Assembly (NCBI GenBank): GCA_023131895.1
Contig: JAGLYZ010000002.1
Location: 240,474 to 304,473, forward strand
Length of the DNA: 64,000 bases
Direction: 5' to 3'
Origin: Candidatus Parcubacteria bacterium
Lineage (GTDB): Bacteria; Patescibacteriota; Minisyncoccia; Minisyncoccales; JAGMDC01
The notes under the pieces were generated by a model. That model saw only the letters and a list, made by a program, of their open reading frames with translations, made no database searches and was not told the origin of the DNA. Below, one piece after another: positions 37,166 through 50,330 of this stretch. The translations under genes and the position numbers were made by a program. The first letter of the stretch is position 1, and each line of letters opens with the position of its first letter.

Positions 37166-38479
37166 TTATTGAACCGATTCAAAACTTACATTTGTTTCTA
37201 TTAAAAAACCAGGAAATTTTTCTGTAGCAAAATTTATTAGCTGAAAATCTTTTTGATTCATATCCTCAAAAAGATTGCCTACAATTATTGCTCTTGTCCT
37301 GCCAACGATTTTGCCATTTTTAACATATAGCACTTGCGGGGAGGGCAAGGAATAATCACCGCTCACCGGACTTTGGGTATGCAGACCCAAGACATTAAAA
37401 ACCATAATTCCTTCGTCAATTATATTAAAACATTTCTCAAAAGAGATTTCTTTTCCAGATTTTAGTAAAGGTATTGCTTGGCTGCTAAAAATGGCTGTTG
37501 GCTTACTTTTCTGTAATTTAGCATATTTTAAGTCCAAAATCGGGGTTTCTAATTTGCCGTTTTTTATAAAATCAGTTGGCTGGCTGTTCACACCTTCCCC
37601 GGTAAATTTGTAAGAACCAACATCAAAATCAATAGTAGGGTCATATTTCAAACTTAAATCTCTTCTTAAAATTTGCTTCTTATTTTTGAAATTATTTATA
37701 GAAAAGCAACTTTGTTTGTTATAAACCGAAGAACCGTCCAAATTACTAATAATAAAATGATAAAATATATCTTTGGAAACCCAAGGCGCCAAGAGACATA
37801 GCATTTTTTTATCTTTTGGTTTAACTTTGCGACTCTTTGTCAACTCAAAATAAAATTGCTCAATAAATCTTCTTTTTTCGTCAATTTTATTTTTTTTAGG
37901 AACTTTTCTTAAGCTATCTTCAAGAACGATTGTATCTTCATAGGTAGAGGCATAACCGCATAAGGTTGACTTTTCTGATTCAAACAAGCCATTAGAAGTA
38001 AAAACCACATTTTCTATATTTATAGCATAAGCAGAAATTTCCTTTACTTTTGTCTTTATTCTATCCTGCCATTTTTTTAACTTTAATACCAAATCTAGTA
38101 GTATCTTTTCTTTACCTTCAATAATGTCATCTACATTTTTATCGTATAATTTGACATTAGGATATTTTTGAGGAGGAAGAAAATTCGCCATAGCCGGGTC
38201 TTTATAGCTTAAAAATTTTAGCTCCCGCAAAAATTTTTCAAAACGATATAAGGTTTCATCATCTAAATTAGCCGAACTGATTAGGCCATTTTGCCATTGA
38301 ACAAGACAATCACCTGAAATTTCTGAAGAAAGAGTGATGGGATTATACACGCCGGCTATTTCCTCGTTAGTGACACCTATCTGACAACCCTTTGTTTTTG
38401 AAATAAAAACCCGATAATTTGAAATTATTTTTTTATTCTTAGCGTCTTCAAATTTTTTATAAAATTTTTGAGCAAACAT
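37166..38479 (-). CDS. TldD/PmbA-family protein (PmbA/TldE-like, divergent)
   Basis: 437 aa with a C-terminal family pattern (LGLHTQSPVSGDYSL...NGKIVG) and no HExxxH motif. Paired with tldD. Confidence 0.65.
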   Translation of the reverse strand: MFAQKFYKKFEDAKNKKIISNYRVFISKTKGCQIGVTNEEIAGVYNPITLSSEISGDCLVQWQNGLISSANLDDETLYRFEKFLRELKFLSYKDPAMANFLPPQKYPNVKLYDKNVDDIIEGKEKILLDLVLKLKKWQDRIKTKVKEISAYAINIENVVFTSNGLFESEKSTLCGYASTYEDTIVLEDSLRKVPKKNKIDEKRRFIEQFYFELTKSRKVKPKDKKMLCLLAPWVSKDIFYHFIISNLDGSSVYNKQSCFSINNFKNKKQILRRDLSLKYDPTIDFDVGSYKFTGEGVNSQPTDFIKNGKLETPILDLKYAKLQKSKPTAIFSSQAIPLLKSGKEISFEKCFNIIDEGIMVFNVLGLHTQSPVSGDYSLPSPQVLYVKNGKIVGRTRAIIVGNLFEDMNQKDFQLINFATEKFPGFLIETNVSFESVQ

Positions 38480-38485
38480 AAAAAA

Positions 38486-39988
38486 CTAATTGCCTCCGAT
38501 TTTGACTTTTTTGTTGGCAGCAATAAAAATAAATTGATTGGCAATTTCAGAAACAGGAGCCCACTGTCCTGTCTTACCGCAAGTACCCGGAAAACCGTAA
38601 GTTTTTTTACCTAAAGCAAATTTTATTGAGCGAAGAGCATCTAAAGTTGTTCCGCTAAACGAAGCAGGTTTAAATAATTTAACCGAGTTTTCAGTAAATT
38701 CGTAAAGTGCATTCATACCAAGCATAAATGCTCCTTTTAGGGTATTAACTTGTCCTCCTCTGGTTCCTTGAAGAAAAAGAATTTTTCTTCCTTTTTTCAA
38801 AATATCAGATTTAACTAAAAAATTTTTGAGCTCTTGTATAGAAATGTCGGACAATTCTTTAGAAAATATTTTATCATCAATAACTTTTTCTACTTCTAAA
38901 ATCGTGTTGCTCATTCGGGGTATAGGAATAGAACTATAAAATTCTGCTTTTGAACCACCTGTTAAAAGCGCTCCAATTTTTTCTGCTGTATAGACATCAG
39001 ATATCGCTTCTTTCAAAATTCCTTTATCTACAATAGTTATTTTTTTTCTTTTTACGCCTTGAGAATCATAGGGATAAAAACCTCGTTCATTTTCTTGAGC
39101 ATAATCGTAAATAGAAACCACAGAGTTAGCTACTTTTTTACCTTTTAATAATTTTCTATTTTTGCTTAGAATAGAACCTGCATAAAGTATATCGGATTCA
39201 GCAGCATGCCCAAATGCCTCGTGAATTAGGGTACCAGCTAATCGTGTATCTAAGAGTAAATCGTAACTTCCAGATTTATACACAGAAGCTTTAATTAATT
39301 TGGGCATCACTATAGATAATTTTTTGATTTCTTTTATCAGCTTTTGCCGACTTTCTCTACCTAACAGTATTTCATAACTTTTACCGCCTATACTTGCACC
39401 TCTCTGGATGGTTTCTCCCTTTTCCTTATAGGTTAAGATACTACCCAAAACACTGCGAGGAATTTGAAAACTTACATCTGTTCCGTCAGACCTGGTTATT
39501 CTCCATATTTCTTCAGCTATATTAAATGAACTGTTAGCTTTTACTAGAAGGAACTCTTTTGCTTCTTTGTTTATATCAATTAGTATTTTTTTAATTTCTT
39601 CTAATTTAATTTTCTCAAAAGAATATTTTGTCTTAGGAACTATAATATCTCTTGTCGGTTTTAGTTTGAAAATTTCTTTATTTGTAGCAAATTTTAATTT
39701 TTCTGCCTTTTTCGCTGAAGAAATAATTTGTTTTAAAAGTTTAATAACCTCATTTTTATTGCGAATATCGTCTATTGACCCAAAGGCATTATGACCACTC
39801 TTGGTAAAAACACGCATACCTATGCCTAATAAACAATCTTTTCTCGCCTGTTCTAATTTATTATCTATCACATTCACAGATTTTGTTTTTTGTTCTTGAA
39901 TGCGCGCAATTAAATAACAATCGCTTTTTAAAGCGATTTGATGAAGATTTTTTAATAAAGAAGAATATTCAGATAAAAGTTCTTTCAT
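38486..39988 (-). CDS. tldD: TldD-family metalloprotease
   Basis: 500 aa with the HEAFGHAAE zinc motif and a C-terminal TldD/PmbA domain. Confidence 0.8.
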   Translation of the reverse strand: MKELLSEYSSLLKNLHQIALKSDCYLIARIQEQKTKSVNVIDNKLEQARKDCLLGIGMRVFTKSGHNAFGSIDDIRNKNEVIKLLKQIISSAKKAEKLKFATNKEIFKLKPTRDIIVPKTKYSFEKIKLEEIKKILIDINKEAKEFLLVKANSSFNIAEEIWRITRSDGTDVSFQIPRSVLGSILTYKEKGETIQRGASIGGKSYEILLGRESRQKLIKEIKKLSIVMPKLIKASVYKSGSYDLLLDTRLAGTLIHEAFGHAAESDILYAGSILSKNRKLLKGKKVANSVVSIYDYAQENERGFYPYDSQGVKRKKITIVDKGILKEAISDVYTAEKIGALLTGGSKAEFYSSIPIPRMSNTILEVEKVIDDKIFSKELSDISIQELKNFLVKSDILKKGRKILFLQGTRGGQVNTLKGAFMLGMNALYEFTENSVKLFKPASFSGTTLDALRSIKFALGKKTYGFPGTCGKTGQWAPVSEIANQFIFIAANKKVKIGGN

Positions 39989-40006: not shown

Positions 40007-41380
40007 TCAAATAGCGACAGCAAATTTCTTATTTATTACCTCAACAATTTGATTAATCTTTACTCTTTCCTGCTTCATTGTGTCGCGGTCGCGGAGAGTA
40101 ACTGCGTTATCCTCCAAGGTCTCAAAGTCCACTGTAACTGCAAAAGGAACACCAATCTCATCAACTCTTCGGTACCGGCGACCTATAGAACCAACCTCAT
40201 CGTATTGGCAGGTAAAATTGGTTTTTAACAATTTATAAACTTCTTTAGCTTTTTTTACCAGCTTCTGCTTGTTTTTTACTAAAGGCAAAACTGCTGCTTT
40301 AATTGGAGCTAACCGCTTATCTAATTTCAAAACTGATTCAACTTCTTTTACTGCCTTGGTTGTTTCTGTTCTTCCGCCTTTTACTTCTGTATAAGCATCG
40401 CAAAGAAAAGCTAATAAAATCCGCTCTACTCCTACTGATGTTTCAATAATATGAGGAATGTATTTTTTGCCATTCGCTTCGTCAAAATAAGATAAATCTT
40501 CCTTACTGTGTTTCGCGTGATTGGATAAATCAAAATCACCTCTATTATGAACCCCTTCAATTTCCTTCCAGCCCGCTTCGCCGCCCGGCGAGCCGAATGG
40601 AAAATGATATTCAATATCTATTTGTCGTTTAGCATAATGAGCTCGTTCTTTTTTAGGAATTTCTACGGCTCTCAAGTTCTCTTTTTTTATCCCTAAATTT
40701 AAATACCATTTTAAGCGCTTTTCTTTCCAATAATTAAACCAATCATCTGCCTTAGATGATTCAGAGAACCACTGCATTTCCATTTGTTCAAATTCACGAA
40801 GACGAAAAATATAATTGCCAGGCGTAATTTCATTTCTGAATGCCTTGCCGATCTGGGCAATACCAAAAGGAATTTTCATTCTCATTGAATTTAAAACATT
40901 TAAAAAATTAACATAAATCCCCTGACAGGTCTCCGGCCTTAAATAAGTTTTAGCTGCTTCATTCTCAACAGGCCCTACAAATGTCTTCATCATTAGGTTA
41001 AATTTCTTTGGTTTAGTTAATTCTCCCCTGCATTCCGGACATTTTTCCCGCATACTGCGGGATTTTGTTTCTATTTCATCTAACTTAAATCGCTTATGGC
41101 ATTTTTTACATTCAACTAATTCATCAGCAAAACCAGCAGCTAAATGACCAGATGCCTGCCAAACTTTTGGCGACATTAGAATACCAGCATCTAATCCCGT
41201 AATATTATCATGGAGTTTTGTCATTTCATCCCACCAGAGATTTTTAATATTTCTTTTGAGTCCTACTCCCAAAGGTCCGAAATCATAACAGCTTGAAAAA
41301 CCGCCATAGATTTCAGAACTGGGAAAGACAAATCCCCGCCTTTTGCAAAGAGAAATAATTTTATTTATTAAATTATCCAT
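40007..41380 (-). CDS. glyQS: Glycine--tRNA ligase (dimeric GlyQS type)
   Basis: Conserved start MDNLINKIISLCKRRGFVFPSSEIYGG at 41380. The track extension to 41533 runs through a structured intergenic repeat. Confidence 0.92.
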   Translation of the reverse strand: MDNLINKIISLCKRRGFVFPSSEIYGGFSSCYDFGPLGVGLKRNIKNLWWDEMTKLHDNITGLDAGILMSPKVWQASGHLAAGFADELVECKKCHKRFKLDEIETKSRSMREKCPECRGELTKPKKFNLMMKTFVGPVENEAAKTYLRPETCQGIYVNFLNVLNSMRMKIPFGIAQIGKAFRNEITPGNYIFRLREFEQMEMQWFSESSKADDWFNYWKEKRLKWYLNLGIKKENLRAVEIPKKERAHYAKRQIDIEYHFPFGSPGGEAGWKEIEGVHNRGDFDLSNHAKHSKEDLSYFDEANGKKYIPHIIETSVGVERILLAFLCDAYTEVKGGRTETTKAVKEVESVLKLDKRLAPIKAAVLPLVKNKQKLVKKAKEVYKLLKTNFTCQYDEVGSIGRRYRRVDEIGVPFAVTVDFETLEDNAVTLRDRDTMKQERVKINQIVEVINKKFAVAI

Positions 41381-41394
41381 ATTTATATAGTATT

Positions 41395-41498
41395 TTTGCG
41401 AAGAAAACCTATTTTTAAAATAGGATGGTGAGGATTTCTTGCTTTCCGAGACCCCGCCTTGGCGGGGAGGAAAGAAAGAAATTCGAGCGATCCTATTG
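41395..41498. repeat. Structured intergenic element upstream of glyQS
   Basis: Closing stem ataggat/atcctat, inner ccccgcc-tt-ggcgggg, and on the minus strand a second hairpin cctatttt-a-aaaatagg followed by TTTTCTT. Shares a scaffold with 33826-33962. Confidence 0.7.
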
Positions 41499-43187
41499 AA
41501 CAATGCCTTGTTCGTCAGTAATGGTTTCATCATCAGGCAGGGTTGTATCTATGTTTTCATCATTGCTCTCTAATAATTCTTCTGTCCAAGTATCTTCAGC
41601 AAAAATCAAAACTTCCTTAATAATTTCTGGTGTTTGTCCTGTTTGATGAATACTTGGCGTAAAAGCAATCTGGAAAGCCAAACTCATACTAACAGCAGAA
41701 ACATCAGAATCTAAAATACCTATTTCTGCTCCTAAATTTTCTATATTCCAAACAATTTCTCTAGAATCAGAGTCAAAAGAAAATTTTTCTTTTTGTTGTT
41801 CTGGAAAAATCTTACTAGTAAGGCTTACTTCTTTTGGCAAAACTGCTTTAACTCTTACATTTTTGATATCATTGTAATAATTCTTAATTTGCCAGATTAT
41901 AGTATAAGTGATAGTTTTACCAACTTCTGGAGGAATTGGTCCGGAATTCCCAAAGACCTCGTCTTGGAAATATCCTTTTTGTTCAACAACTAACTTTGAA
42001 TTCACTTTAGTTATAAATTCTTCCCGAGCTTGTTGAGCTAAATAAATTTTATTTTTTATTGTCAAATTTTTATCTCCTGAATTGTCCATTTGCCAGTCAT
42101 CTTTCAAATTTATCCAGAACTCAACCCTGCCCTCTTCTTGAGAATCTAAAAACTGGAGCTTTGAAACTTTTTTCCAGTCAAAAATAATTGAATTGTCTCC
42201 AGGCCCAAAATTACCATCAAATGTTTTAATGCTATTAAGATCAAACAGCTTTCCTTCCAGCTTTGTTACTAAAGAAAGATTAGTTAGCGCCTTTTCCCCG
42301 ATATTCCTAAAAAAAATCTCATAATGCAGCAAATCCCCTGCATTAGCAACATATTGCGGATTGCTATTAATCTGTTGTGAGATATAAAGCGATGGTTCAA
42401 TAATTTCAACGCCTTTGGACGCTTGTTTTAACAACACAAATTCCCCTTCTTGCCAAACACCAAATTCAGCTTGAAAAATTTTCTTTTCTCCAACATTGCC
42501 GGAAAGCTTGCCTGTAATCTCAATCCTGCCTCCCTCTGATTTATCTAAAAGATTGATTGACCAATCTGTATTTTCTAAAGCAGAAGGAGAAGACTTTATG
42601 AACTCAAAACCAAAAGGATATTCAACTTTTATGCCTAAATCAGAAAGAGGATAGTCAATATAAGAAAAATAATTCAAATGAAATTTAATTTCTTTGCCTT
42701 CCTGGATTCTTGAAGGAAAATCAAACTCAAAAGTCAAAGGGACCTTTTCAATAATAGAAGTAAAAGTGGTTTTTGATTCATATCGTGATTCTAAATTCTT
42801 GGGCCTGTAGGTCAGAACTGCCTTTGCCTGTTTTTTCTCGCCCTCTTTTCCTAAAAGCCGGGCTTTAAAACTGAATGTTTTCTCTTGACCAGGATAAATT
42901 GCCTCGCCTAATTTTTCAATCTCTATCTCGTCCCTCAAATGACCATCATCAGTTATTGAGTTTTCAGGGTATTCAAAAATAAGCTTTGGCTCTTCAACTC
43001 TTGTATTACCATTATTTTTATATTTAACAAGATACTCAATCTCTTCACCTGCTTCTACTTTTTCAGAACCCAATATTTCAAGCTTTATAATTTCTTTTGA
43101 ATAAATATTTTTCTGATAATACCAAAAACCAGTTACTCCTATAAGAACACTCAAAAATATTAAAAATAATATCAATTTGTTTCTCAT
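41493..43187 (-). CDS. N-terminally anchored hypothetical protein with repeated beta-sandwich-like modules
   Basis: 564 aa with a single N-terminal TM segment and recurring module pattern (..G..i.Y.i.y.N.G). No recognisable catalytic motif. Confidence 0.4.
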   Translation of the reverse strand: MRNKLILFLIFLSVLIGVTGFWYYQKNIYSKEIIKLEILGSEKVEAGEEIEYLVKYKNNGNTRVEEPKLIFEYPENSITDDGHLRDEIEIEKLGEAIYPGQEKTFSFKARLLGKEGEKKQAKAVLTYRPKNLESRYESKTTFTSIIEKVPLTFEFDFPSRIQEGKEIKFHLNYFSYIDYPLSDLGIKVEYPFGFEFIKSSPSALENTDWSINLLDKSEGGRIEITGKLSGNVGEKKIFQAEFGVWQEGEFVLLKQASKGVEIIEPSLYISQQINSNPQYVANAGDLLHYEIFFRNIGEKALTNLSLVTKLEGKLFDLNSIKTFDGNFGPGDNSIIFDWKKVSKLQFLDSQEEGRVEFWINLKDDWQMDNSGDKNLTIKNKIYLAQQAREEFITKVNSKLVVEQKGYFQDEVFGNSGPIPPEVGKTITYTIIWQIKNYYNDIKNVRVKAVLPKEVSLTSKIFPEQQKEKFSFDSDSREIVWNIENLGAEIGILDSDVSAVSMSLAFQIAFTPSIHQTGQTPEIIKEVLIFAEDTWTEELLESNDENIDTTLPDDETITDEQGIVQ

Positions 43188-43207: not shown

Positions 43208-43960
43208 TCAGAAATTTTCCAAAACAAAAGAAAGATAATCTTCAGAAATTGTTTCTAATAACTCTTTATTTTTTTCTTCAACTTTTAACTTTGATAGAAC
43301 AGACCAATCTTTTTGCAGAAAAAGCCGTAAAATTTTTATAACATCTGGCTTTATCTCTATTAATTTAGTCAAAGAATCCTCTTTTTTAATTTCCTGAGCG
43401 CAAACATTACAAACAATTCCCCCTTGCTCTGGACTGAAGTATAATTGAAATGGTTTTAATTCTTTTCCACAAGATGAACATTTATAAAACTCTGGCTGAT
43501 ATCCTAAAGCAGAAAGAAGATTCCAAAGAAAATAGTAGTATATAATTTCTAATTTCCAATTTCCAATTTTCATTGAATTTTCAATTTTCAATTTCTCAAA
43601 AACTTCTTTCAGTAATTCCCAAATTTTCTCGTCTTTTTCTTCATCTTTAACTAATTTATCCAAGACATCGCTAATTTGAAAAGCAGTTTTTAATTTTTCT
43701 AAATCTTTTCTTATATCTGGAAAGCTATTAATCAAAATAGTATCAGTCAAGGTTTTATAAGTTTTTCCTTGAATAAATTCAATTTCTGAAAGATAAAAAA
43801 GCCCTGCTCCGCCCCTTAGCTTTGATTTAATTTTTCTAATTGCTTTTCCTAAAATCTTTAACTTTCCAAAATCCTTTGTATAAACTACAAATAATTTATC
43901 TGATTCTCCTTGAGCAATCTCTGTTATAAAAAAACTTTTTGTCCTATAATGAACAGCCAT
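43208..43960 (-). CDS. recO: DNA repair protein RecO
   Basis: 250 aa with an OB-like N-terminus and a CxxC...CxxC zinc finger (CSSCGK...CNVC). Contains an AATTTYC low-complexity insertion at 43547-43595. Confidence 0.75.
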   Translation of the reverse strand: MAVHYRTKSFFITEIAQGESDKLFVVYTKDFGKLKILGKAIRKIKSKLRGGAGLFYLSEIEFIQGKTYKTLTDTILINSFPDIRKDLEKLKTAFQISDVLDKLVKDEEKDEKIWELLKEVFEKLKIENSMKIGNWKLEIIYYYFLWNLLSALGYQPEFYKCSSCGKELKPFQLYFSPEQGGIVCNVCAQEIKKEDSLTKLIEIKPDVIKILRLFLQKDWSVLSKLKVEEKNKELLETISEDYLSFVLENF

Positions 43961-43962
43961 AA

Positions 43963-46900
43963 TTAAATTCTTCTAATTCCCAGCCAGAGTTCTTGGCCTT
44001 CTATTTTAAAAGTTTTCTCAATATCAAAAACTCTTTTTGGTCTGTCACCCTCTAAAAGGTCCTTAACTACAATCTCTTTTAAAATTGTCTTTTTATTTTT
44101 CTTTAAAATTTCACAGAGCTTTTCTTCCCCAGAATATCTAACAAACACCCGGTGTTTGGGCTTATAACCAGCTTTTTTACGCATTTCTTGAATATTTCGA
44201 ATAATCTCCCTGATTATTCCTTCTTCTCTTAACTTCGGCGTAATTTTAGTATCTAATTTAAAGGTTTTATCAAAGGTAATTTTTTTCACATTTACTTCAT
44301 CTTTAATCAATCCTAATAATTCTTTATTCCTTTTTAGCTTTTCATTTTTACTTTTTACTTCGAGCAAAGCGAGCGGCTGACGGACTTTTATTCCTGCCTT
44401 TGCTCGTTGAGCCAATCCCTTTGCTACAATTTCCCGCACTATTTTCATTTTTTCTTCTAATTTCTTATCAATTGCCTTCTTATCTGGTTTTGGCCAATCT
44501 TCTAAATGAACAGATTTATTTTTCGAAGAATTTTGGCATATTTCTTCTGAAATAAATGGAACAAACGGGGCTGTCAACTTAGCTAAGCTAAGAAGAACAA
44601 ATCCCAAAGTTTGCGACGCTTCTTGAAAATCTTTTTTTGTTTTGGGGTTCTGAAATCTCTTCCTAGATCTTCTCACATACCATAAAGATAAATCGTTGAT
44701 AACAAAATCCTCTATATCTCTGGCCGCTGAAGTAATATCGTAATTATCTATCTTTTCAGAAACCCCTGAAATTAATTCATTTAATCTGGAAATTATCCAT
44801 CTATCTAACAAGTTTTGAGCTTTGCGTTGTGGCTTTGCACTTTGAATTTTGAGCTTTGAGTTTTCTTTTGGAACATATGTTTCAAAAAAGGTATATACAT
44901 TATAGTAAGTAAGAATAAATTTCTTTAATGCCTTATCTACATCTTTTTCTGTAAATAGTTTGGAATCGCCTGGCTGATTTATAGTATAAAAATACCAGCG
45001 AGCAGCATCTGAACCATATTTTTCAATTATATGCCAGGGATCAACCACATTGCCCTTGGACTTTGACATTTTTTCTCCCTTTTCGTCTAAAACATGGCCT
45101 AAAGAAATAACATTTTTATAAGGAGTGCCAAAATCTAATAAAGTTGAGATTGCCAACATGGTATAAAACCAGCCTCTTGTTTGATCAATTGCTTCGCAAA
45201 TATAATCAGCTGGAAATTGATTTTTAAATTTTTCTTGCTCAAAAGGGTAATGATACTGGGCAAACGGCATTGCGCCAGAATCAAACCAGCAATCAATCAC
45301 TTCTGGAACTCGCTTCATTAAATTATTACATTTAGGACACTCAAATTTTACTTCATCAATATATGGTTTGTGAAAATCCAATTCTTGATTTTCTTTATTA
45401 TAAGGAAAAAGCTTAAATTCTAATCTCCTTAATTCTCCAACATCCATACTTCTATCTTGCCAGTGTTGTGTAATTTCTTGTTGAGAAAATCCTTTAACAA
45501 TACTTTCCGCCATTAAGATTGGACCGCCATGGCTAACAATTAAAATATTCTTATTTTTGTATTTTTTATCTACTTCTTTTAGAAAATCGTAGACTCGCTT
45601 TTTAACATCTGTGTAGCTTTCTCCTTTAAACGGCCTTTTGTCAAATTTATCTATTTTCCCTTCAAATAATTTACGGTACTCTTTAATATTTTTACCATCA
45701 AAAATACCAATATTTACTTCTATTAAACGTTTATCATATTTTACTTTCTTTCCAATTTCTTTTGAAATAATTTCAGCTGTTTGCTTAGTTCTTAAAAAAT
45801 CAGAAGAGAATATTAAATCTATTTTTTCTTTTTTTAACTCTTGCACTGCTTTTTTAATTTGCTCCCTGCCTTTTTTAGTCAAAGGACAGCCAGCTCCCTT
45901 ATTTTTATAAGAAAGAATATGCTTTTTGAAGCACTCTGATTCTCCATGTCTTAAAATAAAATATTTATTAGTGCTGAATTTCTGTTTTAATAAATCATCT
46001 TTGCTTCCGATAATTTCTTGATAACCGCATTTTTTACACTGCCAAATAGGCAATGGAGTTCCCCAATATCTTTCTCTGGAGATAGCCCAATCCTTTAATC
46101 CTCTCAACCATTCGCCGAACCTGCCCTGCTTTAAATGCTTAGGAACCCAGTTTATCTTTTCGTTATTTTTAATCAAATCTCTCTTAACTTTTGTCATTTT
46201 AATAAACCAACTCTTCTGGGCATAGTAGATTAAAGGCGTCTTGCATCTCCAGCAAAAAGGATAGTCATGTTCATACAGTTCTTCTTTAAAAAGCAGCTTT
46301 CTCTTTTTTAAATCTTCAATAATCAGCGGATCAGCCTTTTTTACAAACAAATTATTCCACTTATATCCTGAAGTCATCATCTTGCCCTGCTCATCTACCG
46401 TAATCAAAACAGGAAGATTGTTTTCTTTGCTAACGTTCATATCATCCTCACCAAATGCTGGCGCAATATGAACCAATCCTGTGCCATCCTCTGTTGTTAC
46501 AAAATCTCCAGCAACTATCTTATAAATGTTTGGAATTTGGAATTTATACAAGGGTTTGTATTTAAGGCCGATTAAATCTTTTCCTTTAAATTCCTCTATA
46601 ACTTCGCCTTCTATGCCAGATTCTTTTATTCTGTTTTTCGCCAAAATCAAAAATTCATTATTAACTTTTACCTTAGCATAAATAAACTTCGGGTTGACTG
46701 CTACTGCTGCATTACCAGGCAAAGTCCATGGCGTTGTAGTCCAAACAAGCAAATATGTATTTTTCTGCCCTTTGATAGAAAACTTTACATAAATTGAGTT
46801 TTCTTTGACTTTCTTGTATCCTTGCGCCACTTCATGGGAAGATAAAGATGTTCCGCATCTGGGACAGTATGGCACAACTTTATAATCCTTATATAAAAGT

Positions 46901-47391
46901 TTTTTCTGCCATATCTGTTTTAAGAGCCACCAAACGGTTTCAATATAATCGGTTTCGTAAGTAATATAAGGATTTTTCATATCCAGCCAATAACCAATTT
47001 TCTCTGTTAAATCTTCCCAGTCCTTTTTATACTGCCAGACAGATTCCTGGCATTTTTGATTAAATTTTATAATTCCAAATTTCTCAATATCTTTCTTGCT
47101 TCTTAGCCCTAATTTTTTCTCAACCTCCAATTCAACTGGCAGACCATGCGTATCCCAGCCAGATTTTCTGATTACCTTAAAGCCATTCATTGTCTTATAA
47201 CGGCAAATCATATCTTTAAATACTCTTGCTTCAAGATGATGAATACCCGGCTTGCCATTGGCAGTAGGCGGCCCTTCATAAAAAACAAAATTGGGCGCTT
47301 TTTTTCGCTGCTCAATTGATTTTTCAAAAATCCTGTTTTCTTTCCAGAATTTTATAATCTTTTTTTCTAACTTAGAAAATTCAACTAACAT
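43963..47391 (-). CDS. ileS: Isoleucine--tRNA ligase with internal extra domain
   Basis: 1142 aa with a HIGH-type motif (PGIHH), KMSKS, a CP1 editing domain and zinc knuckles. Carries a ~190-aa insertion at about aa 476-665. Confidence 0.93.
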   Translation of the reverse strand: MLVEFSKLEKKIIKFWKENRIFEKSIEQRKKAPNFVFYEGPPTANGKPGIHHLEARVFKDMICRYKTMNGFKVIRKSGWDTHGLPVELEVEKKLGLRSKKDIEKFGIIKFNQKCQESVWQYKKDWEDLTEKIGYWLDMKNPYITYETDYIETVWWLLKQIWQKKLLYKDYKVVPYCPRCGTSLSSHEVAQGYKKVKENSIYVKFSIKGQKNTYLLVWTTTPWTLPGNAAVAVNPKFIYAKVKVNNEFLILAKNRIKESGIEGEVIEEFKGKDLIGLKYKPLYKFQIPNIYKIVAGDFVTTEDGTGLVHIAPAFGEDDMNVSKENNLPVLITVDEQGKMMTSGYKWNNLFVKKADPLIIEDLKKRKLLFKEELYEHDYPFCWRCKTPLIYYAQKSWFIKMTKVKRDLIKNNEKINWVPKHLKQGRFGEWLRGLKDWAISRERYWGTPLPIWQCKKCGYQEIIGSKDDLLKQKFSTNKYFILRHGESECFKKHILSYKNKGAGCPLTKKGREQIKKAVQELKKEKIDLIFSSDFLRTKQTAEIISKEIGKKVKYDKRLIEVNIGIFDGKNIKEYRKLFEGKIDKFDKRPFKGESYTDVKKRVYDFLKEVDKKYKNKNILIVSHGGPILMAESIVKGFSQQEITQHWQDRSMDVGELRRLEFKLFPYNKENQELDFHKPYIDEVKFECPKCNNLMKRVPEVIDCWFDSGAMPFAQYHYPFEQEKFKNQFPADYICEAIDQTRGWFYTMLAISTLLDFGTPYKNVISLGHVLDEKGEKMSKSKGNVVDPWHIIEKYGSDAARWYFYTINQPGDSKLFTEKDVDKALKKFILTYYNVYTFFETYVPKENSKLKIQSAKPQRKAQNLLDRWIISRLNELISGVSEKIDNYDITSAARDIEDFVINDLSLWYVRRSRKRFQNPKTKKDFQEASQTLGFVLLSLAKLTAPFVPFISEEICQNSSKNKSVHLEDWPKPDKKAIDKKLEEKMKIVREIVAKGLAQRAKAGIKVRQPLALLEVKSKNEKLKRNKELLGLIKDEVNVKKITFDKTFKLDTKITPKLREEGIIREIIRNIQEMRKKAGYKPKHRVFVRYSGEEKLCEILKKNKKTILKEIVVKDLLEGDRPKRVFDIEKTFKIEGQELWLGIRRI
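44810..44866. repeat. G/T-rich ~57-nt repeat shared with tatD
   Basis: aagttttgagctttgcgttgtggctttgcactttgaattttgagctttgagttttc. In frame, encoding NSKLKIQSAKPQRKAQNL. Confidence 0.85.
45397..45966 (-). other. Histidine phosphatase (PGAM-like) domain embedded in IleRS
   Basis: YFILRHGES (RHG catalytic motif), SSDFLRTKQTA, IEVNIGIFDG and IVSHGG (second catalytic His). It lies between the IleRS blocks ...PIWQCKKCGYQEIIGS and DFHKPYIDEVKFECPKC. Confidence 0.7.
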
Positions 47392-47393
47392 AT

Positions 47394-48989
47394 TTACATT
47401 TTTTTTGGCGCGGAAATGCCCATTAAATCAAGAGCATTTTTTAAAACGATTTTAACCGCCTCAATTAAAGCTAAACGGCTTTGGAAAAGCGCTTTGTCTT
47501 CTGTAATAACTTTGCAATCGCGATAAAACTGATGAAAAACATTTGCTAAATCAAAAGCGTATTGAGGAATTCTCTGAACCTGATAATCTTTAGTAGTATC
47601 CTCTATAATCTCTGGAAATCTAATAAGCTGTTTAATAAGTTTTAATTCAGTTGGATGATTTAATACTTTTAAGTTTTGCTTGCCCGCCGAAGCTTTAGCG
47701 AAGGCGGGAGTTTCGTATTTTGACTTTGCGAGGATACTGTGTATCCGAGCATAGGCGTATTGTATATAATAAACCGGATTTTTCTCTGACTGTTCTCTAG
47801 CTAATGCTATGTCAAAATTCAAATGTGTATTTATAGATTTTTGCAGAAAAAAGAACCTCATTACATCAGAACCAACTTCATCAAGCAACTCATCAATAGT
47901 AAAATAAACTCCTTTTCTTTTTGACATTCTCTGTTTTTCCCCTTTTCTTAAAATAGTTACAAACTGATGTAGAATAATTTCCAGTTTATCTTTATGTCCT
48001 AAAGCTTCTATTCCAGCTTTTAGTCCTGGAATATCTCCATAATGGTCAGTTCCCCAAACATTTATCACTTTAGTAAATTTTTTCTTTTCAAATTTATATC
48101 TATGATAGGCGATATCTCCAGCTAAATATGTTTTAGAACCATCTTGTTTAACTAACACCCTATCTCTATTATCACCATACTTTGAGGATTTAAACCATAA
48201 AGCTCCATCTTTTTTATAAACCAGCTTTTTCTTTTTTAAAAACTCTATTATTTCATCAACTTTTCCTGATTTATAAAGCCGGCTTTCAAAAAACCATTCA
48301 TCATATTTAATACCCATTTTCCGAACTGTTTTTTTAATCATTTCATCTATAATAATCTTTGCTGATTTTTGTCCAGCTTTATATGGATCTTTTTCTTTTA
48401 TTTGTTTATGAAGCTTATCTATATATTCTCCCTTATAAACTGCTTCTTTATCTTTTAAAACAGAATGGCCAAGAGCTAAAATCTGTTTTCCAAAATCATT
48501 GATATAGTATGCTTTTTCTATTTTAAATCCTGATTTTTTTAAAACATTTGCTAAAACATCGCCGAACGGTCCTCCTCTGGCATTACCAATAGTTAAAGGA
48601 CCAGTAGGATTTGCTGAAATAAACTCTATTTGGATTTTTTTATTTTTACCAATATTTAAATCTCCGAATTTTTCTCTTTTCTTTAAAATTTCTTTAACTT
48701 GTTTCTGCAAATATTCTTTAGAAATAAAAAAATTGACAAACCCGGGCTTTACAATCTCAACTTTCTCTAAAAACTCTGGATCAATAATCAATAAGTGATT
48801 ATTAATAATTTTTGCTATTTCCATTGGATCTTTCTTAAGGGTTTTACTAATCTGCATAGCGATATTTGTGGAATAATCGCCATATTTTTCCTGTTCCGGA
48901 TGCTCAATAGAAAAATCAATCCTATCTATAGAAAATTTTGCTTTAAAACATGCCTTTTCAACTATATTTTTTATATCCTCTCTAATCAT
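47394..48989 (-). CDS. argS: Arginine--tRNA ligase
   Basis: 531 aa with an N-terminal Arg-tRNA-binding domain, SANPTGPL (HIGH region) and a C-terminal DALR anticodon-binding domain. Confidence 0.92.
   Translation of the reverse strand: MIREDIKNIVEKACFKAKFSIDRIDFSIEHPEQEKYGDYSTNIAMQISKTLKKDPMEIAKIINNHLLIIDPEFLEKVEIVKPGFVNFFISKEYLQKQVKEILKKREKFGDLNIGKNKKIQIEFISANPTGPLTIGNARGGPFGDVLANVLKKSGFKIEKAYYINDFGKQILALGHSVLKDKEAVYKGEYIDKLHKQIKEKDPYKAGQKSAKIIIDEMIKKTVRKMGIKYDEWFFESRLYKSGKVDEIIEFLKKKKLVYKKDGALWFKSSKYGDNRDRVLVKQDGSKTYLAGDIAYHRYKFEKKKFTKVINVWGTDHYGDIPGLKAGIEALGHKDKLEIILHQFVTILRKGEKQRMSKRKGVYFTIDELLDEVGSDVMRFFFLQKSINTHLNFDIALAREQSEKNPVYYIQYAYARIHSILAKSKYETPAFAKASAGKQNLKVLNHPTELKLIKQLIRFPEIIEDTTKDYQVQRIPQYAFDLANVFHQFYRDCKVITEDKALFQSRLALIEAVKIVLKNALDLMGISAPKKM
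47665..47722. repeat. AAGCTT-centred GC-rich in-frame element inside argS
   Basis: acttttaagttttgcttg + gcccgccgaagctttagcgaaggcggg + agtttcgtatttt. Encodes ETPAFAKASAGKQNLKV. Confidence 0.8.
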
Positions 48990-49073: not shown

Positions 49074-49391
49074 TTAGTTTTGAAAGAGCTCCGATAATAC
49101 TTTGTTAACTTCTCTGCCCTCTTCTGTTTCCGTATATTGAAAGACCATTTTAGAAATTCTCTCTTGAATATCTGAATCCTGAAAATACTTATCTGAAAGA
49201 ACATTTTTAAGCCACGCTGCCGCTCTAAAAATATGATAAGATTCTCTGGTGCTTAAAGATAAAACTTCTTTCACTTTTTGTAAAACATCCCAGATTTCTG
49301 TATTCCAAATCTCATCGCTTTTTCCTTGCTCTTTCATTTTTTCATATACCAACATAACTGCATCAAATGGCAATCTTATTTGTTCTTTCAT
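49074..49391 (-). CDS. Hypothetical helical protein
   Basis: 105 aa ORF divergent from smpB. No recognisable motif. Confidence 0.4.
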   Translation of the reverse strand: MKEQIRLPFDAVMLVYEKMKEQGKSDEIWNTEIWDVLQKVKEVLSLSTRESYHIFRAAAWLKNVLSDKYFQDSDIQERISKMVFQYTETEEGREVNKVLSELFQN

Positions 49392-49466
49392 TTTTACCTC
49401 CTATTTTTAGGATATTCCCTAAACTTAAATTTGTCAACCGACTTTAAAGTTGTTAAACTAAAATTG

Positions 49467-49916
49467 ATGAGTATTCTTGCTCAAAATAAAAAAGCATATT
49501 TTGATTATGAAATTTTAGAAACCTATGAAGCAGGGATTGTTTTGATTGGCCAAGAAGTAAAAGCAATTAAAACCGGCCATGTCAGCTTGAAGGGTTCTTA
49601 TGTCGTAATTAAAAACCAGGAAATGTTTTTAATTGGAGCTAATATTCCGCCATATCAGCCGAAAAACGCGCCATCTAATTATAGTCCAGAACGTTCCAGA
49701 AAACTGCTTTTAAAAAAATCAGAAATCAAATCTTTAATCGGCAAATCCAAGCAAAAGGGCTTGACTTTAATGCCTTTAAAGATGTATACTAAGAGAGGAA
49801 AAATAAAATTATTGTTTGGATTGGCAAAAGGCAAGAAAGAATATGACAAAAGAGAGAAAATAAAAAAAAGAGAGTTTGAAATAGAAAAAGAAAGAATTAT
49901 TAGAGAAAAAATCTAA
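49467..49916 (+). CDS. smpB: SsrA-binding protein SmpB
   Basis: Conserved start region MSILAQNKKAYFDYEI at 49467. The track start at 49326 is an upstream extension. Confidence 0.92.
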   Translation: MSILAQNKKAYFDYEILETYEAGIVLIGQEVKAIKTGHVSLKGSYVVIKNQEMFLIGANIPPYQPKNAPSNYSPERSRKLLLKKSEIKSLIGKSKQKGLTLMPLKMYTKRGKIKLLFGLAKGKKEYDKREKIKKREFEIEKERIIREKI

Positions 49917-49919
49917 GAT

Positions 49920-50319
49920 GGGAGTGTCAGGTCTCGACAGAAATTTGAGTTAAAATATGCAAGTCGAGTTTTCTCAAATCTCGCAAAACTTTGAGAAAAA
50001 AATAAGTGTCAACTTATTTTCTAAAGCTAAAACGGCTCTCGTTAACGCCATTGGCGAATATCCGAGTGTTCCGACTTTAGCTCCTGCTTACGTTTAATCG
50101 TAAGTCATCTGATTGTTGATTCTCGCTGGGCAAAATCAGGTGTTATATTTAGCGAGATACTCAGTTCTCTTGTCTCAAAGGACTGGGAAAAATATAGAGG
50201 CTAAGAATATTGAAATTTTGTTCATTTTTTATTTAGTATTCCGAAAAAACAAAATGGACTAAATTTGTAGAAATATTTTGGCAAAATTTCTGGACAGGGC
50301 TTCGATGCCCTCACTTCCA
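49920..50319 (+). ncRNA. ssrA: tmRNA (SsrA)
   Basis: Begins 4 nt after the smpB stop. 5' GGGAGTG pairs with 3' CACTTCC, and a tRNA-like T arm (agggcTTCGATgccct) plus discriminator A are present. An internal ORF at 50026-50097 ends ...TLAPAYV-stop. Confidence 0.8.
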
Positions 50320-50330
50320 CATAAAATAAT

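Follow-up and report, generated by a model that had tools for sequence, protein, structure and literature searches.

A predicted histidine phosphatase nested within the isoleucyl-tRNA synthetase of Parcubacteria, alternating with a standalone gene upstream of ileS

The ileS gene described here belongs to a Candidatus Parcubacteria bacterium (GenBank assembly GCA_023131895.1, contig JAGLYZ010000002.1) and lies in a stretch of 64,000 nucleotides (positions 240,474 to 304,473 of the forward strand) that was analysed as a whole and is called the window below. It encodes an isoleucyl-tRNA synthetase (IleRS) and is flanked by argS and recO (Table 1). The synthetase body is interrupted by a second domain, and we read the protein as bifunctional: a type-2 IleRS with a whole His_Phos_1 module at the tip of its third connective peptide (CP3), both activities being predicted. 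The protein is identical to NCBI entry MCK4520685.1, whose title says only 'class I tRNA ligase family protein [Candidatus Parcubacteria bacterium]'. The phosphatase insert is probably the cause of this weak annotation, which stands despite the score against the ileS model TIGR00392 reported below.

Table 1. Features of the ileS locus, with positions counted in the window
Feature	Position	Strand	Remarks
argS	47394..48989	minus	directly abuts ileS, upstream, with a 2-nt spacer
ileS open reading frame	43963..47391	minus	1142 residues; complete type-2 IleRS with nested phosphatase
IleRS N-terminal part, residues 1-468	45988..47391	minus	Rossmann fold (first half), CP core, CP1 (editing domain), CP2 and CP3 (first half, with the first CxxC)
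Class I signature, swapped form G49-I-H-H52	47236..47247	minus	G/AXHH variant of HXGH
First CxxC (C452, C455) of the CP3 zinc knuckle	46027..46038	minus	25 residues upstream of the RHG arginine
Whole extra segment, residues 469-669	45385..45987	minus	stands where T. thermophilus IleRS has a CP3 loop of about 9 residues (478-486)
His_Phos_1 (PF00300) match, residues 478-642	45466..45960	minus	Pfam E=1.8e-37 in the whole protein
RHG motif R481-H482-G483	45943..45951	minus	H482 is the predicted phospho-acceptor nucleophile
R534	45790..45792	minus	second phosphate-pocket arginine, in LRTKQTA
E558	45718..45720	minus	predicted acid/base glutamate
H621	45529..45531	minus	second catalytic histidine, in VSHGG
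Second CxxC (C685, C688) of the CP3 zinc knuckle	45328..45339	minus	
IleRS C-terminal part, residues 670-1142	43966..45384	minus	CP3 (remainder), Rossmann fold (second half), anticodon-binding domain, type-2 C-terminal DUF5915 region
recO	43208..43960	minus	downstream of ileS; member of the argS-(phosphatase)-ileS-recO-DUF7619 block

The host synthetase scored 939.8 bits against TIGR00392, the NCBIfam ileS equivalog (cut-off 621.4 bits), in two stretches split by the insert. Pfam likewise placed tRNA-synt_1 in two parts around it, together with Anticodon_1 and the C-terminal DUF5915 (PF19302). Among PDB entries the best matches were Thermus thermophilus IleRS (1ILE, 921 bits) and P. megaterium IleRS2 (PmIleRS2, 888 bits), with eukaryotic cytoplasmic IleRS ranking next and S. 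aureus IleRS1 at 345 bits. By these matches the window IleRS is a type-2 enzyme (IleRS2) of the Thermus/eukaryote-like kind, in line with an earlier first-pass annotation of this DNA, which had called the open reading frame collinear with archaeal or eukaryote-like IleRS. The motifs DWAISRER, DCWFDSG and KMSKS lie at residues 434-441, 700-706 and 774-778, and the CP1 editing motifs WTTTPWT (residues 217-223) and GTGLVHIAPAFGEDD were invariant across a 69-sequence alignment. Editing-domain chains from the PDB aligned to residues 191-378. Since TIGR00392 is above its cut-off and the KMSKS motif, the editing motifs and the zinc cysteines are all conserved, and since the class I signature takes a form documented as functional in IleRS2, the synthetase is, as judged from its sequence, complete, and charging of tRNA-Ile is predicted.

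The class I signature reads G-I-H-H where T. thermophilus IleRS has HVGH. This G/AXHH variant has been shown experimentally to give IleRS2 hyper-resistance to mupirocin (PMC10485003). It occurred in 24 of 37 IleRS that carry the insert (fused form) and in 20 of 27 from lineages in which the phosphatase is a separate gene (standalone form), and is thus independent of the fusion. The MupA and MupB models (NF000257 and NF000258) gave 877.5 and 871.8 bits and did not reach their cut-off of 1900, nor did the ileS_w_GNAT model NF040702 (333.6 bits, cut-off 1999); Pfam found no GNAT domain in the window IleRS. At the KMSKS loop (equivalent to window positions 45058-45072), 15 of 64 related IleRS among loci L007-L086 read EMHKS; it is unusual for this second class I signature to have its first lysine replaced.

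The first-pass annotation had reported about 190 extra residues at positions 476-665 of the protein, which map exactly to 45397..45966, and had recognised in them a domain resembling phosphoglycerate mutase (PGAM-like). Searched alone, this 190-residue segment matched PF00300 with E=4.9e-39 and 134.4 bits (gathering threshold 21.7 bits). All catalytic residues were in place, and every motif that had been quoted from the insert (RHG at 481-483, LRTKQTA, E558 and VSHGG) or from the host on either side of it (DWAISRER, DCWFDSG) was found. The module itself spans about 185 residues (approximately 476-657) and is collinear from end to end with complete standalone proteins of about 188 residues, to which it is 47-55% identical. 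Folded alone by AlphaFold2 (AF2) from an alignment of these free-standing proteins, it gave a mean predicted local distance difference test score (pLDDT) of 93.4 and a predicted template-modelling score (pTM) of 0.90, a confident fold for the module by itself.

Foldseek searches with the module model returned 4IJ5 (iPSP1), 4QIH and 1H2E (PhoE) with E-values of 1e-12 to 1e-14 and template-modelling scores of 0.73-0.82. The best matches were short phosphatase-type members of the superfamily (iPSP1, a phosphoserine phosphatase; Rv2419c, which acts on glucosyl-3-phosphoglycerate; PhoE; and CobC), true phosphoglycerate mutases ranking lower. None of the NCBIfam equivalog cut-offs was reached: dPGM_arch (NF038349) gave 105.4 bits against 225, pgm_1 (TIGR01258) 32.8 against 81.7, PspA (NF045917) 87.6 against 350, CobC (TIGR03162) 103.1 against 162.9 and SixA (TIGR00249) 34.3 against 74.5. 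For this reason the module is placed by its profile scores within the His_Phos_1 superfamily and outside every characterised subfamily.

Its catalytic residues were nevertheless almost unvarying. Across 159 fused copies, the RHG arginine was kept in 155 of 155 non-gap positions and the nucleophilic histidine in 154 of 155, the second arginine in 158 of 159, glutamate or aspartate at the acid/base position in 159 of 159 and the second histidine in 159 of 159. The set was also complete in 107 of 107 standalone homologues. Conservation of this order among proteins of only 35-60% overall identity is the signature of a working active site, and the module is apparently an active phosphatase. Between the window protein and its relative at locus L007, the module is 57% identical and the IleRS body 77%; fused modules diverge somewhat faster than the body that carries them.

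The insertion point was located by alignment to known IleRS structures. Residues 4-468 of the window protein correspond to 9-477 of 1ILE and residues 670-1001 to 487-821, so that about 200 residues stand in place of about nine. In insert-free relatives the loop at this site has 7-13 residues, which bears out the earlier statement that the two flanking blocks normally lie a short distance apart. Mapping onto Candida albicans IleRS gave the same location, window residue 465 matching residue 493 within CP3 (residues 473-534). The insertion thus falls between the two CxxC pairs of CP3, which carries a zinc-binding motif in T. thermophilus IleRS; since its topology differs among IleRS types, CP3 is a peripheral and structurally plastic element. 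Of 37 fused relatives, 35 kept all four cysteines, as did each of the 27 that lack the insert, and the module may therefore be said to hang from an intact zinc clamp. Because insert-free relatives have a clean loop of 7-13 residues here, the insert is dispensable for IleRS, which in these relatives functions, as far as sequence can tell, without it.

The fused form is not peculiar to one genome. An exhaustive HMMER search with a 270-residue query spanning the junction retrieved 224 representatives (50% identity clusters) below 1e-30, and of the best 150 more than 130 covered the insert together with the IleRS sequence on either side. Full-length proteins of 1110-1275 residues with the same motif spacing were numerous among them. 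Sources named among the matches of the homology searches were Nealson-, Colwell-, Wolfe-, Wildermuth-, Staskawicz-, Taga- and Azambacteria and Paceibacterota. When relatives were instead ranked by the synthetase alone (search with the IleRS body, insert deleted), PF00300 was present in 119 of the 120 nearest proteins. The fusion therefore predominates in a large clade of Parcubacteria. A single protein of the 120, P0286, is insert-free; it has a clean 7-residue loop, indicating that its IleRS does not need the insert. Its gene (L088:5001-7967) is surrounded by restriction-modification, Gp49/HTH toxin-antitoxin and LexA-like genes, a setting apart from the argS-recO block that hints at relocation or transfer of this ileS. 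Another Patescibacteria metagenome-assembled genome (MAG) carries two tandem ileS-like genes (L029:5100-8645 and L029:8649-11693), both with the phosphatase insert; the second is without the CP1 editing domain, its N-terminal half matching only window residues 4-195 and 369-467.

This recurrence bears directly on whether the nested segment could be a chimeric assembly, an intein or some other mobile insertion. The only feature in favour of such an origin is that the G+C content of the insert (0.28) is slightly below that of the rest of ileS (0.339; window 0.328). It lies inside the local range of 0.24-0.37, and the claim that the insert fits its host in composition holds. The identical architecture and junction were found in about 47 independent species-level MAGs and in more than 130 clusters from many studies, which excludes a chimeric assembly. 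Pfam detected no Hint, intein or endonuclease domain, and the junctions (…FSTN/KYFIL… and …KENQ/ELDFH…) show neither the Cys/Ser nor the His-Asn-Cys/Ser/Thr signature of an intein. We regard an artefact or mobile element as having next to no chance of being correct, in accord with the original reading of a fixed, in-frame insertion. A split ileS was considered as well, since many matches of about 650 and 750 residues seemed to share a start, either the N-terminus of the phosphatase or another fixed position. It was rejected: their starts were variable, and an adapter-derived 'MCIRDR' and a conserved internal methionine (M399) identified them as truncated gene calls.

In other genomes the same phosphatase is a gene of its own. 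One genome per GTDB species was scanned with a query built from a 6-sequence alignment, and the resulting 80 loci, all from Patescibacteria MAGs, were classed by their open reading frames. About 47 were fused, with the module inside a frame that has both IleRS halves (the classification lists 48, which includes the window itself), and 33 were standalone. The free-standing homologues occupy the syntenic block of the window (NUDIX, IF3, smpB/tmRNA, argS, ileS, recO and a DUF7619 protein), where the phosphatase gene separates argS from an ileS that lacks the insert and encodes 940-959 residues. In 32 of the 33 standalone loci it lay directly upstream of ileS on the same strand. The distance to ileS was mostly 36 nt or less, several pairs having overlapping stop and start codons, and the rest had one small open reading frame in between; the end of argS was usually 14-62 nt upstream of the phosphatase gene. 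L085 was the sole standalone locus with neither neighbour. Small unannotated open reading frames of the argS-phosphatase-ileS cluster were considered as a functional clue and dropped, being unrelated to each other and without a Pfam match.

None of the 80 loci had both a nested and a standalone copy, and a profile search of all open reading frames of at least 40 residues found no second phosphatase in the window. The nested module is thus the cis form of a conserved two-gene partnership whose two arrangements are mutually exclusive. As the phosphatase, L085 aside, was always beside or inside ileS, fusion and adjacent-gene pairing stand in a Rosetta-stone relationship, nested instead of end-to-end. 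The spread of the fusion through a clade, its alternation with an upstream gene and the occurrence of further modules at other IleRS sites, described below, all go beyond the first-pass annotation.

Neighbour-joining trees built from 64 paired sequences, 37 from fused and 27 from standalone lineages, were used to follow the distribution of the two arrangements. Parsimony required 6 state changes on the IleRS-body tree (bootstrap range 5-8), where shuffled labels needed 20.8; the module tree required 7. The arrangement is therefore strongly tree-structured, yet neither the IleRS-body nor the phosphatase tree gave a clean split between fused and standalone forms. The N-terminal junction was fixed, the distance from the first CxxC to the RHG arginine being exactly 25 residues in 131 of 140 fused proteins, which argues for a single insertion event in CP3. 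At matched host divergence, module identity was 0.40-0.48 between fused pairs, 0.46-0.51 between standalone pairs and 0.42-0.45 between fused and standalone. We infer a single origin for the copy nested in CP3: the upstream phosphatase gene would probably have been duplicated once into the CP3 loop, and one of the two redundant copies would afterwards have been lost in different lineages. Duplication followed by differential loss is proposed because it reconciles a single junction with the interleaved distribution and with mutual exclusivity.

In some relatives IleRS contains two or more modules. At the CP3 site, P0213, P0233 and P0243 have a tandem pair. In P0155, P0259 and P0260 a second module lies between the KMSKS/stem-contact region and the anticodon-binding domain (at about window residues 841-854), and P0259, P0260 and P0265 have modules just past the DxWFDSG motif (about 713-725). 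P0265 has another just past the second CxxC (about 689-691), and P0208 one at about residue 401 together with three others. These multi-module IleRS have 2-4 modules per protein, and the catalytic set was kept in 17 of 17. Repeated insertion at several sites of one synthetase is hard to explain by chance or by co-expression alone.

Its constant location at ileS, the mutual exclusivity of the two arrangements, the invariance of the catalytic residues and the repeated, multi-site insertion together lead us to propose that the phosphatase acts for or with IleRS. Our preferred reading, to which we give a probability of roughly 0.6, takes the module for an active phosphomonoesterase working as a partner of IleRS, whether built into it or encoded beside it, with an activity that serves aminoacylation. 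It would hydrolyse a small phosphomonoester by a phospho-histidine mechanism with H482 as phospho-acceptor, a small substrate being favoured because the module resembles short metabolic phosphatases. Selection would hold the module at IleRS, or stoichiometric with it, since its activity would serve isoleucine charging; a candidate role is the clearing of a phosphorylated nucleotide, metabolite or inhibitor that is produced at the synthetic site or blocks it. The first-pass annotation had suggested that the module could act on a phosphorylated nucleotide or tRNA end, or could regulate the enzyme. Several points weigh against this partnership or blur the picture on which it is built. The evidence that ties the phosphatase to aminoacylation consists entirely of gene order and fusion, and the nearest characterised relatives of the module are ordinary metabolic phosphatases (22-28% identity) that act on phosphoserine, glucosyl-3-phosphoglycerate or alpha-ribazole-phosphate. 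Mutual exclusivity was judged locus by locus, and genomes may hold further copies elsewhere. In the AF2 model of the full-length window protein (pTM 0.42), the Rossmann core had a pLDDT below 50 and active-site geometry is not readable. Finally, the neighbour-joining trees are crude, the modules being near saturation (40-50% identity), and they do not separate a single insertion with reciprocal loss from repeated insertion or fission.

The relationship of the module to metabolic small-molecule phosphatases, which include its nearest solved relatives, would also fit a fusion without any mechanistic link. An independent phosphatase, of phosphoserine-, phosphoglycerate- or broad PhoE-type, might have shared an operon with ileS in a compact genome and been absorbed by a permissive loop of an abundant essential protein, with co-expression as the only gain. 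The peripheral and plastic nature of CP3 and the working insert-free IleRS of relatives suit such hitch-hiking, as does the position of the standalone gene in a tight multi-gene translation cluster, where adjacency may be historical. Against it, adjacency to ileS was kept in the 32 of 33 standalone cases although the IleRS bodies are only 43-66% identical, and modules were found at four or more other IleRS positions, in 2-4 copies, all catalytically intact, a pattern difficult to account for unless selection favours physical coupling to IleRS or dosage. Moreover, the easier route of an N-terminal end-to-end fusion, by loss of the stop codon where stop and start overlap, was taken in none of the 80 loci. 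On balance we think hitch-hiking unlikely, though still the main alternative. A catalytically dead module, its fold kept as a scaffold for tRNA binding or protein docking, would agree with the many appended synthetase domains that are non-catalytic and with the slightly faster divergence of fused modules at large distances (0.40 versus 0.48 identity for standalone ones); the near-invariance of five catalytic residues in 159 fused copies and in every extra module, at 35-60% identity, makes this very improbable.

The module might instead serve macromolecular repair or counter-defence, acting on tRNA-Ile or on IleRS itself: it would remove a CCA-blocking 2'/3'-phosphate or pyrophosphate, or reverse phosphorylation of the synthetase by a toxin kinase. 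Toxins that phosphorylate synthetases or pyrophosphorylate tRNA CCA ends are known, and enzymes with the histidine-phosphatase fold include the protein phosphatases SixA, PGAM5 and Sts-1. The domain is tethered to an enzyme that handles the tRNA 3' end, its association with this one synthetase is recurrent, multi-site and multi-copy, and TFIIIC tau55 offers a case in which a domain of this fold is joined to the machinery of tRNA genes. On the other hand, the module is far below the SixA cut-off (34 versus 74.5 bits), and its modelled structure resembles short small-molecule phosphatases and not protein phosphatases. We are aware of no His_Phos_1 enzyme with activity on RNA ends; no geometry places the phosphatase active site near the acceptor path of the tRNA, and no toxin genes were found nearby. 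Nothing in this analysis supports a macromolecular role directly, and we consider it improbable. Slightly broader is the speculation, to which we would also assign a low probability, that the phosphatase is an undescribed, dedicated accessory of isoleucine charging. Whether in cis or in trans, it would be indispensable to IleRS as a partner and would strip a phosphate-bearing block from the CCA end of tRNA-Ile, from phosphorylated IleRS or from a phosphorylated inhibitor that mimics the adenylate. A tRNA synthetase would then come with its own repair or immunity module, one maintained throughout a large branch of the Candidate Phyla Radiation.

The preferred partnership of an active phosphomonoesterase with IleRS, if true, would reveal that in Parcubacteria, ultra-small symbionts of which most are uncultured, the charging of isoleucine has an unrecognised step or vulnerability. 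We found no description of a second, unrelated and apparently active enzyme within the catalytic body of a bacterial synthetase. Whatever its role, the module is a clear case from nature of a single function that switches between two states, neighbouring gene and nested domain, and it exposes an annotation gap in a protein named only for its ligase class.

Upstream of argS, smpB (49326-49916, plus strand) is followed after 3 nt by the transfer-messenger RNA (tmRNA) gene (49920-50322, plus strand; Rfam RF00023, 128 bits). The SmpB match of Pfam begins at residue 52 of the 196-residue open reading frame, so the listed TTG start may lie too far upstream. Downstream of the DUF7619 gene, the window has a ProRS-like class II synthetase (tRNA-synt_2b and HGTP_anticodon) and two tandem metallopeptidase genes of PmbA/TldD type; the minus-strand genes at 37166-39988 and 40007-41533 belong to this ordinary context, which is partly shared with locus L005.

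Aminoacyl-tRNA synthetases are among the best-studied enzymes, and their known insertions are editing, zinc or tRNA-binding modules. The first-pass annotation knew of no phosphatase module within a synthetase body, and our literature searches likewise found no description of a phosphatase nested in IleRS or of an argS-phosphatase-ileS pairing; the recent broad studies of IleRS evolution and structure that were consulted mention neither a phosphatase nor Patescibacteria. The sequences are already public, with their domain match, and it is the combination of IleRS and phosphatase that was not found described in the literature searched.

Known type-2 IleRS (T. thermophilus, 1ILE/1JZQ; P. megaterium IleRS2, 8C8U; the plasmid-borne MupA and MupB) are collinear with the whole synthetase body of the window protein, sharing the Rossmann fold, CP core, CP1, CP2, CP3 zinc knuckle, KMSKS, anticodon-binding domain and C-terminus, and hyper-resistant IleRS2 also have the G/AXHH signature in common with it. 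They differ at the tip of CP3, where known IleRS2 have a loop of about 9 residues and the window IleRS has about 200 that encode a second enzyme. An IleRS with an extra enzymatic domain has a precedent in the family modelled by NF040702 (ileS_w_GNAT), whose GNAT fold differs from that of the phosphatase. The short His_Phos_1 phosphatases iPSP1/PspA (H. thermophilus, 4IJ5), PhoE (G. stearothermophilus, 1H2E), Rv2419c (M. tuberculosis) and CobC have the same fold and the same R-H-R-E-H set as the module, and at about 190-210 residues they are of similar size, with 22-28% identity. These are free-standing metabolic enzymes, whereas the window module is nested in ileS and its relatives are encoded directly upstream of it. 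A further relative is the standalone Parcubacteria phosphatase of about 188 residues (for example P0010, P0102 and L012), which has its catalytic residues and syntenic block in common with the insert. It is a polypeptide of its own, translationally coupled to an insert-free IleRS and itself uncharacterised. In yeast, TFIIIC tau55 has a histidine-phosphatase domain on tRNA-related machinery, in this case a eukaryotic transcription factor; the physiological substrate of that domain is unclear and, unlike the window module, it is appended and not nested. Covalent joining of His_Phos_1 to an unrelated enzyme is known from PFK-2/FBPase-2 and from the mycobacterial RNase H/acid phosphatase (PRK07238), where the partner is a nucleic-acid enzyme. 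Both of these are tandem N-to-C fusions, whereas the window module is nested in an insertion within the catalytic domain of a tRNA synthetase.

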